From the NCBI RefSeq assembly GCF_003334315.1, contig NZ_QOWR01000003.1: a stretch of DNA of 64,000 bases. The stretch is one strand, 5' to 3'. This DNA comes from Escherichia coli. GTDB taxonomy: Bacteria > Pseudomonadota > Gammaproteobacteria > Enterobacterales > Enterobacteriaceae. Within the stretch, counting starts at the first letter, position 1. Each line of letters begins with the position of its first letter. The notes beneath the pieces were generated by a model. The model ran no database searches and was not told the DNA's origin. It was given only the letters and a program-made list of their open reading frames with translations. A program made the position numbers and the translations under genes. Shown one piece after another: positions 12,572 to 17,689 of this stretch.

Positions 12572-13936
12572 ATGAACGATTATAAAATGACGCCAGGTGA
12601 GAGGCGCGCGACCTGGGGTTTAGGGACCGTATTCTCGTTGCGCATGCTGGGCATGTTTATGGTTCTGCCGGTTCTGACCACGTACGGCATGGCTCTGCAA
12701 GGTGCCAGCGAAGCATTAATCGGTATTGCCATTGGTATTTATGGTCTGACTCAGGCCGTTTTTCAGATTCCGTTTGGCCTGCTTTCCGACCGCATTGGTC
12801 GCAAACCATTAATTGTCGGTGGGCTGGCGGTGTTTGCCGCCGGTAGCGTTATCGCTGCGCTTTCCGACTCCATCTGGGGAATTATTCTGGGCCGGGCGCT
12901 ACAAGGCTCTGGAGCAATTGCCGCCGCCGTTATGGCGCTGCTTTCCGATCTCACGCGCGAACAAAACCGCACCAAAGCGATGGCGTTTATCGGCGTGAGC
13001 TTTGGCATTACCTTTGCCATTGCGATGGTGCTTGGCCCGATCATCACTCACAAACTTGGGCTGCACGCGCTGTTCTGGATGATCGCTATTCTGGCAACGA
13101 CCGGCATTGCGTTGACCATTTGGGTTGTGCCCAACAGTAGCACTCACGTACTTAATCGTGAGTCCGGAATGGTGAAAGGCAGTTTCAGTAAAGTGCTGGC
13201 GGAACCGCGGCTGCTGAAACTCAACTTTGGCATTATGTGTCTGCATATTTTGCTGATGTCGACGTTTGTTGCCCTGCCCGGACAACTGGCTGATGCAGGG
13301 TTCCCGGCGGCTGAACACTGGAAGGTCTATCTGGCGACAATGCTAATCGCCTTTGGCTCGGTCGTGCCTTTCATTATCTACGCTGAAGTTAAGCGCAAAA
13401 TGAAGCAAGTCTTTGTCTTCTGCGTCGGGTTGATCGTGGTTGCGGAAATTGTGTTGTGGAACGCGCAAACGCAGTTCTGGCAACTGGTGGTCGGCGTGCA
13501 GCTTTTCTTTGTGGCGTTTAATTTGATGGAAGCCCTCCTGCCCTCACTTATCAGTAAAGAGTCGCCAGCAGGTTACAAAGGTACGGCGATGGGTGTTTAC
13601 TCCACCAGCCAGTTTCTTGGCGTGGCGATTGGCGGTTCGCTGGGCGGCTGGATTAACGGCATGTTTGACGGTCAGGGGGTATTTCTCGCTGGCGCAATGC
13701 TGGCCGCAGTGTGGCTGACAGTCGCCAGTACCATGAAAGAACCGCCGTATGTCAGCAGTTTGCGCATTGAAATCCCGGCGAACATTGCCGCAAACGAGGC
13801 GTTAAAAGTGCGTTTGCTAGAAACTGAAGGCATCAAAGAAGTGTTGATTGCAGAAGAAGAACATTCAGCTTATGTGAAAATCGACAGCAAAGTGACGAAT
13901 CGCTTTGAGATAGAACAGGCAATTCGTCAGGCATAA
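12572..13936 (+). CDS. yajR: MFS transporter YajR
   Basis: 454-aa product MNDYKMTPGERRATWGLGTVF... from ATG at 12572 with GAGGTGG SD; ORF track start further upstream rejected. Confidence 0.9.
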   Translation: MNDYKMTPGERRATWGLGTVFSLRMLGMFMVLPVLTTYGMALQGASEALIGIAIGIYGLTQAVFQIPFGLLSDRIGRKPLIVGGLAVFAAGSVIAALSDSIWGIILGRALQGSGAIAAAVMALLSDLTREQNRTKAMAFIGVSFGITFAIAMVLGPIITHKLGLHALFWMIAILATTGIALTIWVVPNSSTHVLNRESGMVKGSFSKVLAEPRLLKLNFGIMCLHILLMSTFVALPGQLADAGFPAAEHWKVYLATMLIAFGSVVPFIIYAEVKRKMKQVFVFCVGLIVVAEIVLWNAQTQFWQLVVGVQLFFVAFNLMEALLPSLISKESPAGYKGTAMGVYSTSQFLGVAIGGSLGGWINGMFDGQGVFLAGAMLAAVWLTVASTMKEPPYVSSLRIEIPANIAANEALKVRLLETEGIKEVLIAEEEHSAYVKIDSKVTNRFEIEQAIRQA

Positions 13937-13944
13937 AAAACGCG

Positions 13945-14041
13945 GCGAATTGCCTGCTGCGCTACGCTTATCAGGCCTACAAAGTTTCTGAATTACAAAC
14001 CTTTGTAGGCCGAATCAGGCGTTCATGCCGCATCTGACATG
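13945..14041. repeat. BIME: two REP elements in inverted orientation
   Basis: GCCTGCTGCGCTACGCTTATCAGGCCTAC and GTAGGCCGAATCAGGCGTTCATGCCGCATCTGACATG between the convergent yajR and yajQ ends. Confidence 0.8.
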
Positions 14042-14063
14042 AACAAAACGCACATAGTCGCGA

Positions 14064-14555
14064 TTAATCGCGGAAGTTTTTGAACTGGAACGGCTGACCG
14101 AGATCGCCACCACGTACCATCGCCATGACAGCCTGCAAATCATCACGAGATTTGCCCGTTACGCGGATTTCATCGCCCTGAATTTGCGCCTGCACTTTCA
14201 GTTTGCTGTCTTTGATCATCTTGACGATTTTCTTCTGGGTCGCGCTCTCAATGCCCTGTTTCAGTTTCGCTTCCACAAACCAGGTTTTACCGCTATGAAC
14301 GATATTCTCCGGTACATCCAGCGAACTGCCTTCAATGCCGCGCTTCAGCAGCTTGGCACGCAGAATATCCAGCAACTGATTGACCTGGAAATCGGACTCG
14401 CTCAACACTTTGATGGTTTTGCTGGCGTCGTTCAGCTCAAATGAGGCTTCAACGTTACGGAAGTCAAAACGGGACTCCACTTCGCGGCTCGCGTTATCGA
14501 CCGCGTTACGTGCTTCCTGAAGATCAACTTCAGAGACAATATCGAAAGATGGCAT
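14064..14555 (-). CDS. yajQ: Nucleotide-binding protein YajQ (UPF0234)
   Basis: 163-aa product [22 protein letters not shown]... from ATG (rc of 14553-14555) with GGAGAGG SD; ORF track extension rejected. Confidence 0.9.
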
Positions 14556-14722
14556 CTTTTCCTCTCCCTTCATTTTTGATGCGAAGCATAATACCCGCAA
14601 AGTTAAATAACCGACAGTCCTGCACCAGGACGTATCCCTTAATTGTGCATAGTCGCAACAGCATGCACAATTAAGGGATAGCCTTATTGAACACCCGGAG
14701 TGGTTGCGGGTGAGGAGGAACA

Positions 14723-16187
<1,465 letters not shown>

Positions 16188-16190
16188 TGT

Positions 16191-16228
16191 CGGATGCGGC
16201 AAACGTCGCATCTGACCAGATGCGACGT
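16191..16228. repeat. REP-like palindrome (12-bp perfect stem)
   Basis: CGGATGCGGC...ACGTCGCATCTG-AC-CAGATGCGACGT between the convergent 3' ends of yajL and thiI. Confidence 0.6.
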
Positions 16229-16240
16229 AAAAACCACAAA

Positions 16241-17689
16241 TTACGGGCGATATACCTTCACATTGTTAAAGCCCTGCTCGCGCAGATAGAGCGCCTGCAG
16301 ACGGCTCATCACCCCGCGCTCACACCACAGCAGCCAGGTTTTGTTCTGGTCGAGATCGCCAAATTTGGTGCTCAGTTTATAGAACGGCAGAGAAACCACA
16401 TCAATCCCTTCGACTTTCAGTGGCTTATCTTCCTGTTCATCGATAGAACGGATATCGAGGATCACGTCGTTCGGGCCGAAGCCATTGACGGTTTCCACTT
16501 CCACCACTTCCTGCTCGGTCTGCTGGGCGATTTCGCGGATATCAACGTTATTCGCTTCCTCAACCACTTTATCGAGAATGCTGAAGTCGAACTTCTCTTC
16601 TTCCGCTTCAATCTTCGATTTAACTGCTTTCACCGTCGGGCTTTTGGAGATCACACCACAATATTCCGGCATCGTGCGAGCAAAGTCTTCGGTGCCAATC
16701 TGGCGGGCCAGGTTGATGATGTGCTCTTTGTCGTAAGAGATCAGCGGACGCAGGATCAGCGTGTCGGAGACGTTATCAATCAGGCGCAGGTTGGTCAGCG
16801 TCTGGCTGGACACCTGGCCGAGCGCTTCGCCGGTGACCAGCGCCTGTACGCCGTAACGTTCAGCCACTTTAGATGCGGCACGCACCATCATACGTTTGAG
16901 GATAACGCCCATCTGACCGTCGTCGATTTTCTCGAGAATTTCCCCGACGACCGGTTCGAAATTAATAGCGACAAAACGCACGCGGTGGGAGCTGCCAAAG
17001 CGGTTCCACAGATAATGCGCCACCTGACGCACGCCAATTTCATGCGCCGCGCCGCCGAGGTTAAAGAAGCAGTAATGCACGCGGCAGCCGCGACGCATCA
17101 ACATATAACTGGAAACACCGGAGTCGAAACCACCGGAAATGAGCGACAGCACATCTTCCTGGGTGCCGATCGGGAAACCGCCAATACCTTCGTAGCGGCC
17201 TTTAATCAGCAGGAGACGATCGTCTTCCACTTCCAGATGGACAGTCACATCCGGATTGGTCAGCTTCACGCGCGCGGATTCAATATGCTGATTTAAACCG
17301 CCGCCGACGTAACGTTCCACATCAATCGAGCTAAAATCATGTTTGCCACGGCGCTTCACGCGTACGCAGAAGGTTTTGCCTTCCAGCTGATCGCGATACT
17401 GAACCAACGCTTTCTCGAAAATATCGTGCATGTCGGTAAACGGCACGTCTTCGACTTCGAGAATATGGTGGATACCCGGAATACGGGTCAGAGCGTCGCG
17501 AATAGCCAGACGCTGGTTTTCATCTTTTGCGCGAACTTCGATGTTATCCCAGTGGCGGACGACAGCGAGCGTCTCATCATAGTGCTTTAAAACGTTACGA
17601 ATGTTCCCGGTAAGGATTTTTATAAAGCGCAAGCGCACAGATTGGCTTTTGATGGTGATTTCCGGGAACAATTTAATGATAAACTTCAT
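16241..17689 (-). CDS. thiI: tRNA 4-thiouridine synthase / thiamine biosynthesis protein ThiI
   Basis: 482-aa ORF with PP-loop SGGFDS and C-terminal rhodanese-like domain. Confidence 0.96.

Follow-up and report, generated by a model that had tools for sequence, protein, structure and literature searches.

An 18-bp perfect inverted repeat in the spacer between the divergent Escherichia coli genes yajQ and panE probably serves in two capacities, its DNA providing a pair of overlapping divergent promoters and its RNA forming an RNase III hairpin within a long yajQ leader. The repeat lies in a window of 64,000 nucleotides (contig NZ_QOWR01000003.1); the positions used here are those of the window (w), and they convert to the MG1655 genome (NC_000913.3) by g = 459238 - w. 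In the mechanism that we favor, the heptamer ATTGTGC/GCACAAT in each arm would be the -35 element in one direction and the -10 element in the other, with 17-bp spacers, and the arms would act as overlapping divergent sigma-70-type promoters directing the panE-yajL start at 14677/8 and the yajQ P2 start at 14635. The repeat would be transcribed whole only from a third yajQ promoter, P3 (start at 14822), and its 18-bp stem would then be cut by RNase III, a cleavage that published data link to a longer yajQ mRNA half-life. The P3 leader would also pair with the first ~145 nt of the panE mRNA, giving a duplex that RNase III would process too. Published experiments show the cleavage, the four start sites and the duplexes, and our own inferences are the choice of hexamers, the mutual exclusion of RNA polymerase at the overlapping promoters and the evolutionary history. 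The genes and the parts of the repeat are as follows.

14064-14555, minus strand: yajQ, with its start at 14555.
14617-14631, either strand: small palindrome GTCCTG-CAC-CAGGAC, at the position of the likely ancestral panE -10 (GCGCTATACTAGGCT in relatives).
14633-14650, either strand: left arm of the repeat, TATCCCTTAATTGTGCAT.
14651-14662, either strand: 12-nt spacer or loop, AGTCGCAACAGC.
14663-14680, either strand: right arm of the repeat, ATGCACAATTAAGGGATA, which holds the published RNase III position 444573 (14665).
14723-15634, plus strand: panE, with its ATG at 14723, followed by yajL and thiI.

The presence of the repeat was confirmed, and it is far from random, well beyond what chance would provide. 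The arms were found on re-checking to be 100% complementary around the 12-nt loop, as the preliminary description of this DNA had them, and the distances that it put at about 40 and 80 nt come to 43 nt for the panE ATG and 78 nt for the yajQ start, the repeat lying upstream of both. Its rough chance estimate of 1e-5 agrees with the analytic expectation of 64000 x 13 x 4^-18 = 1.2e-5. At loops of 3-15 nt, no perfect inverted repeat in the window is longer, the runner-up having 11 bp, and the longest repeats in 40 first-order-Markov random windows had at most 13 bp. When folded as RNA, the hairpin reaches -28.1 kcal/mol in the yajQ sense (z = -7.1) and -27.1 kcal/mol in the panE sense (z = -8.0). 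RNase III hairpins are characterized by about two helical turns of largely uninterrupted double-stranded RNA, and the stem offers 18 contiguous pairs and 2 inner ones.

Complete E. coli genomes carry the repeat at one locus each (5425 of 5426); the "2 places per genome" returned by the E. coli search reflect a palindrome that matches both strands of a single locus. The earlier judgment that it is neither REP-like nor a terminator can be upheld, as dispersed copies of the kind that mark REP/BIME, ERIC and MITE elements are not seen for a sequence with a single locus in 5425 genomes, and a scan of the locus, where the neighboring genes are divergent, found no terminator-like site. Rfam covariance models run against 13800-15400 at a permissive E-value gave chance-level matches only (E of at least 1.8). 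Searches for plasmid and phage homologues of the repeat found none, and, with its single E. coli copy, a mobile or repeated element was rejected as a candidate.

The authors of the preliminary description did not recall any account of the repeat, but the hairpin is already known as a biochemically verified RNase III site, published in 2017 by Gordon, Cameron and Pfleger in mBio (PMC5371410). RNA-seq coverage was compared there between wild type and an rnc deletion, and position 444573, listed as "Intergenic (panE-yajQ)", had rnc/WT read ratios of 48 and 32. Because the reads were aligned to NC_000913.3, this position corresponds to 14665, inside the right arm. Purified RNase III cut the site in vitro (scored "Y"), and several cuts were mapped by 5' RACE (PMC5371410), which establishes the RNase III-type processing site that had been listed among the options. 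The half-life of yajQ was ~6 min in wild type versus ~3 min in the rnc mutant, cleavage in the 5' UTR being stated there to stabilize the transcript, and yajQ was the only gene of the two whose stability changed (PMC5371410). The same authors pointed out that complementarity makes similar hairpins possible on both strands and that panE is perhaps affected too. Their in vitro substrates were artificial T7 transcripts begun inside the neighboring coding sequences (primers GG420-GG423; PMC5371410), and templates that start from the neighboring genes reveal that either strand is cleavable rather than which strand cells make. From the start-site maps and the yajQ-only effect on half-life, and given that the Gordon library was maybe not strand-specific, we infer which strand is cut in vivo.

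Four public start-site datasets, when combined, show that the hairpin-bearing strand in vivo is the minor long yajQ leader. The mapped starts, leaders and their upstream elements are these.

14556-14822, minus strand: long yajQ leader of 267 nt from P3 (Kim 2012 start 443640; Cappable-seq).
14580, minus strand: yajQ P1 primary start, with a 25-nt leader (Cappable-seq 443882; SMRT-Cappable-seq 444657; dRNA-seq FWD-443882).
14588-14593, minus strand: yajQ P1 -10 TATTAT, conserved across Enterobacterales.
14635, minus strand: yajQ P2 primary start (Cappable-seq 443827; SMRT-Cappable-seq 444602; dRNA-seq FWD-443827).
14677-14678, plus strand: panE-yajL primary start (SMRT-Cappable-seq 444560 reverse; dRNA-seq RVS-443785, in.2 coordinates).
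14678-14722, plus strand: panE 5' UTR of 45 nt, hairpin-free, from the mapped start.
14829-14834, minus strand: yajQ P3 -10 TACAAT, inside panE, which needs the Escherichia-specific Cys codon TGT.

The yajQ-sense rows listed in Cappable-seq (Ettwiller 2016; U00096.2) are 443640, 443827 and 443882, i.e., 14822, 14635 and 14580. In SMRT-Cappable-seq (Yan 2018), the panE-yajL operon (b0425 and b0424) starts at 444560 on the reverse strand, equal to 14678, and yajQ starts are placed at 444602 and 444657. The differential RNA-seq of Romero 2014 has RVS-443785 at 14677, FWD-443827 at 14635 and FWD-443882 at 14580, and contains no other reverse-strand start between 440598 and 445912. For yajQ, Kim 2012 reported a start at 443640, a UTR of 267 nt and a promoter ending ...CACGCTACAATAAGGTTG. 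P1 and P2 are thus supported by three datasets each, and P3 and the panE-yajL start by two each. By these maps, the mRNAs of panE, yajQ P1 and yajQ P2 (the last with an 80-nt leader) begin at or beyond the edges of the repeat, and none of them contains the hairpin. Among the mapped natural transcripts, the whole hairpin is found only in the P3 leader, which begins 100 nt inside panE, and its restriction to the long yajQ leader fits the yajQ-only change in stability seen by Gordon et al. The structured 5' leader that had been proposed at first therefore exists for the minor long yajQ transcript from 14822, and does not exist for E. coli panE or for yajQ P1 (14580) and P2 (14635).

Folding of the 267-nt P3 leader gives the hairpin a pair probability of 0.97, with the small 6-bp hairpin directly after it. 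The leader is antisense to the panE mRNA over 14678-14822, ~145 nt. Products of RNase III captured by the p19 protein (Huang et al. 2020 supplement, PMC7373196) include five duplexes of 22 nt, each sequenced on both strands, at.2 coordinates 443641-443777, which are positions 14821-14685. The span of these duplexes matches the predicted overlap between the P3 leader and the panE mRNA and ends at the edge of the repeat, and this is evidence both that cells make the long leader and that panE transcription starts where it was mapped. The captured products further indicate that, beside the intramolecular hairpin, a duplex between two RNAs is processed by RNase III. The panE/yajQ locus figures only in the tables of Huang et al., with no discussion in the main text (PMC7373196).

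Masking of the yajQ ribosome binding site by the long leader, through pairing of the panE SD antisense with the yajQ SD, and its release by RNase III was tried as an explanation and set aside, as the fold is undiscriminating. The yajQ SD is mostly paired in every isoform (probability unpaired of 0.05-0.19), and the AUG alone differs (0.25 vs at least 0.94). Occlusion of this kind would be a weak idea, drawn from predicted structures.

The start-site maps also indicate an option that the preliminary description did not include, namely that the arms carry core promoter elements. The elements, as placed from the mapped starts, would be the following.

14643-14648, plus strand: putative panE-yajL -35 TTGTGC, placed from the mapped start with a 17-bp spacer; 3/6 consensus.
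14666-14671, plus strand: putative panE-yajL -10 CACAAT, with -11A and -7T, 6 nt before the mapped start.
14665-14670, minus strand: putative yajQ P2 -35 TTGTGC, from its position relative to the start.
14642-14647, minus strand: putative yajQ P2 -10 CACAAT, from its position relative to the start.

Read on either strand, the sequence is identical, TTGTGC-17-CACAAT-6-A, and both of the starts that it predicts are observed. The panE start at 14678 was forecast from the symmetry of the repeat and then matched by SMRT-Cappable-seq 444560 reverse. The panE-yajL and P2 starts mirror each other about the center of the palindrome at 14656.5, ~21.5 nt on each side, and each lies 3 nt inside the outer edge of the repeat. 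Support for starts at these promoters comes from three methods, two of which select triphosphate ends. As judged against consensus, TTGTGC matches at 3/6 and CACAAT at 4/6, and a consensus sigma-70 scan of 14400-14900 (at least 4/6 per hexamer and 9/12 overall) returned 0 sites; since the scan was empty, the promoter assignment rests on start positions, not on mutagenesis. With starts only 42-43 bp apart, the RNA polymerase footprints of the two divergent promoters must overlap completely, and binding at one would be expected to exclude binding at the other. The perfect symmetry extends to bases that a promoter does not need (TATCCC/GGGATA), and hence promoter function alone does not account for an 18/18 repeat.

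This last point is what would be expected if the repeat were purely an RNA element, selected for the RNase III hairpin, with the 5' ends at its edges arising as by-products of structure or processing. Selection on RNA pairing, and not on promoters, predicts 18/18 symmetry, the hexamers are poor against consensus and the promoter scan is empty, and RNase III cleavage is the sole function that has been directly tested. Such a reading is nonetheless unlikely. The edge starts were captured by Cappable-seq and SMRT-Cappable-seq, which take triphosphate ends, and by TAP-dependent dRNA-seq, whereas the ends made by RNase III are monophosphates and its cuts fall inside stems rather than 3 nt from their base. 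There is no upstream panE-sense start from which a precursor of the 14677/8 end could come. The p19 duplexes reach no further than 14685, as they should for a panE mRNA begun at the edge of the repeat. The ancestral panE -10, described below, is destroyed in E. coli while panE is expressed, and its loss means that a new promoter is required.

A site for a dimeric regulator had been another of the early suggestions. Genomic SELEX (Shimada et al. 2021) has an NtrC peak of 41% at 443,846 (.2 coordinates), about 14616, in the panE/yajQ spacer, the assay being run in vitro on fragments of 200-300 bp. Motifs resembling TGCAC-type half-sites form a cluster of three, at 14621, 14643 and 14664, and the latter two lie in the arms, where they overlap the putative -35 hexamers. 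These observations could be taken to mean that the repeat is mainly an operator, with NtrC as the candidate among dimeric or oligomeric regulators that would control both divergent genes. We regard this as distinctly improbable, however, given that the spacer holds no full 17-bp NtrC box, (T)GCA(CC)AnnnT(GG)TGC(A), the best match being 9/14, a score that occurs 150 times across the window. The two arm half-sites, everted and at a distance of 14 nt, do not have the geometry of TGCACCAnnnTGGTGCA, and a 48-bp span with a 12-nt non-palindromic center is atypical for a single operator. The evidence for NtrC is in vitro only, and an operator would leave the RNase III data unaccounted for, although it could co-exist with the promoter-and-hairpin explanation. 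What stands of the suggestion is thus the in vitro peak in the spacer, weakly, and not the full box, and a regulator site is a weak candidate for an added layer and not the main explanation. A sigma-54 promoter was searched for at the locus and not found.

The small palindrome beside the repeat, which the preliminary description had grouped with it, is indeed present at 14617-14631, but as a functional unit it was rejected. About 16 palindromes of 6 bp are expected by chance per loop length in 64 kb, and this one is polymorphic, a SNP breaking its pairing in strain APEC E16002 and the sequence being altered in E. albertii. It holds an NtrC-like half-site, TGCACCA, and in the yajQ P2 RNA, where it makes up nt 5-19, it can fold into a 6-bp hairpin.

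The history of the element was approached with a comparison set of 80 yajQ loci and targeted look-ups. The yajQ-panE spacer is ~113-125 bp long and repeat-free in Salmonella, C. amalonaticus, C. farmeri, Enterobacter, Leclercia and others. E. coli and E. albertii, which carry the identical repeat, have a spacer of 167 bp, and the Citrobacter freundii complex, with a homologous but imperfect hairpin, has one of 174 bp. Among the taxa compared, the repeat-bearing block of ~61 bp occurs only in Escherichia and the C. freundii complex. The conserved GCGCTATACT found in most Enterobacteriaceae is likely the ancestral panE -10, judging by its sequence, and the C. freundii complex hairpin directly follows this motif, with an intact TATACT ~7 nt upstream. 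The Escherichia counterpart is GTCCTGCACCAGGAC, within the small palindrome, in which TATACT is lost and TGCACC stands instead.

The Citrobacter stems, in 8 to 12 distinct versions, contain 23 G.T versus 2 A.C cells, falling in ~8 columns versus 1, and relative to E. coli they have one compensatory change and three fixed mismatches. A G.T cell can pair, as G.U, in the panE-sense RNA but not in the yajQ-sense RNA, and accordingly the panE-sense folds are better than the yajQ-sense ones by 7-11 kcal/mol. On sequence grounds, a leader hairpin of panE would seem to have been under selection in Citrobacter, as suggested by few independent events in related sequences. The Citrobacter versions also have promoter-like hexamers that do not vary, one strand reading TTGTAC-18-AACAAT and the other TTGTTC-18-TACAAT.

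These features bear on the idea that led the preliminary description, in which the repeat would give the panE mRNA of E. coli a structured 5' leader that acts on panE stability or translation. The Citrobacter hairpin, placed ~7 nt after an intact TATACT and G.U-compatible on the panE-sense strand only, is what such a role would look like, and Gordon et al. saw a T7 transcript of the panE sense cleaved in vitro and allowed for an effect on panE (PMC5371410). For E. coli itself, the idea is now highly improbable: the sole mapped panE-sense start, at 14677/8 in two datasets, lies inside the right arm, the ancestral -10 upstream of the hairpin is gone, and the rnc mutant changed the stability of yajQ only. 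Only in the C. freundii complex, going by its sequences, is such a leader hairpin of panE plausible, and the comparison suggests that the role of the element differs between Citrobacter and Escherichia.

Returning to the promoter-and-hairpin explanation, the order of events that it would imply begins with a ~61-bp palindromic block that inserted into the leader of panE, directly behind the ancestral -10 TATACT. The block of the C. freundii complex would still resemble a panE-sense leader hairpin. In Escherichia, the ancestral -10 would have been lost and the repeat made perfect, initiation would have shifted into the arms, and P3 would have arisen by a synonymous codon change. The P3 -10 TACAAT is present only in E. 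coli and E. albertii among the genera compared, and the panE Cys codon is TGC in nearly all other genera, which removes the -11A of P3. In Escherichia, the loss of the ancestral -10, the perfect repeat with starts in its arms and the new antisense-overlapping yajQ promoter thus coincide. It is possible, and we put it forward tentatively, that a panE leader-hairpin insertion was co-opted in Escherichia as a mirror-image promoter pair while still serving as an RNase III target in the antisense-overlapping yajQ leader. The codons concerned in panE are the Tyr-Cys pair TAT TGT (14829-14834), in which the synonymous TGT creates the P3 -10.

Within E. coli, the 48 bp of the element are identical in 5384 of 5425 genomes, with 1-2 changes in the other 41, and 300 genomes differ when 26 extra flanking bases are included; as raw genome counts with phylogeny ignored, these figures are suggestive of constraint on the 48 bp. 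That the repeat is instead a selfish or neutral palindromic relic, REP/MITE-like or cruciform-forming and with no selected role, is scarcely credible, for while the ~61-bp insertion is lineage-restricted, unrelated insertions occupy the same spot in other genera and one strain has an IS3-family element in the right arm, the repeat is single-copy in E. coli genomes with plasmid and phage homologues absent, it is identical in those 5384 of 5425 genomes and in E. albertii between variable flanks, and it contains mapped starts and a verified RNase III site.

The strain in question is the clinical isolate E. coli 13TMH22 (NZ_CP019256.1), in which an IS3-family element, annotated as IS1203, follows directly after CACAAT in the right arm (14671/14672). 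The insertion sits between the putative panE -10 and the start, parting panE from its promoter. Kluyvera, Pantoea sp. IMH and Erwinia endophytica (loci L009, L035 and L046; 13TMH22 is L090) have unrelated insertions of 45-55 bp after a TATAAT/TATACT motif, some of them with inverted repeats of their own, e.g., CCCTCAG...CTGAGGG in L035. Taken together, these cases suggest that the panE leader just past the conserved -10 is a recurrent insertion spot.

An 8-bp inverted repeat, ACCCGCAA / TTGCGGGT (14593-14600 / 14704-14711), brackets the whole promoter region and is conserved in many genera. Its differences between genera had the look of covariation, but as a conserved helix this outer pairing was rejected, since all four base combinations occur at its variable position. 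Downstream, the convergent yajL (end at 16187) and thiI (end at 16241) have between them an 11-bp perfect inverted repeat, ACGTCGCATCT gacc AGATGCGACGT, at 16203-16228, probably a terminator-type hairpin that both genes share. The longest open reading frame for yajL (15591-16187) takes in the last 44 nt of panE, which ends at 15634, and from the RefSeq yajL start the overlap with panE is 38 nt; the overlap is consistent with the single panE-yajL transcription unit of SMRT-Cappable-seq. The panE gene is partly redundant with ilvC.

The element can be set beside several known systems. With the RNase III leader hairpins of E. coli (pnp, rnc, adhE and the Gordon set, which includes the panE/yajQ site), it shares a 5' UTR stem of long, near-perfect double-stranded RNA that is depleted in vivo in an rnc-dependent way, is cut by purified RNase III in vitro and alters the half-life of the mRNA. 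Unlike hairpins of the pnp, rnc and adhE type, cleavage at panE/yajQ is reported to stabilize the downstream mRNA; the stem is also present only in a minor long isoform, and the same DNA holds promoter elements. The stem-loops of the ompA type, at the 5' terminus, stabilize bacterial mRNAs. Some likeness to these is found in the C. freundii complex hairpin, within a few nt of the predicted panE start, and in the small 6-bp hairpin that folding places 4 nt from the 5' end of the E. coli yajQ P2 RNA, while the large E. coli hairpin, in contrast, is at no mapped 5' end. The symmetry-derived bidirectional promoters described by the Grainger laboratory have one shared -10 and divergent starts 10, 18 or 23 bp apart (PMC12825309). 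Common to both is symmetry that puts elements on both strands, divergent mRNAs and overlapping polymerase binding, but the panE/yajQ starts are 42-43 bp apart and the -10s are separate (14642-47 and 14666-71), each on the -35 of the other. Excludon-like loci and p19 clusters (PMC7373196) likewise have a long 5' UTR antisense to a divergent neighbor and ~22-nt duplexes from the overlap, with the difference that at panE/yajQ an intramolecular hairpin is immediately beside the intermolecular duplex.

What is added to the 2017 paper is that the arms coincide with the panE-yajL and yajQ P2 starts, that the hairpin strand is the minor long leader and, as a suggestion from the comparison, that the element has changed role between Citrobacter and Escherichia. 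Should the co-option in Escherichia prove true, panE-yajL and yajQ would be coupled by mutually exclusive polymerase binding at one 48-bp element and coupled a second time by RNase III processing of the hairpin and of the sense/antisense duplex. The geometry, with starts 43 bp apart and each -10 on a -35, would be distinct from the class with a shared -10, and the relocation of a promoter into an inserted palindrome would be documented. If the embedded promoters hold, the repeat would be a compact natural case of one sequence under constraint both at the DNA level, as promoter, and at the RNA level, as RNase III substrate, and would be useful for understanding how palindromic insertions become recruited into regulation.
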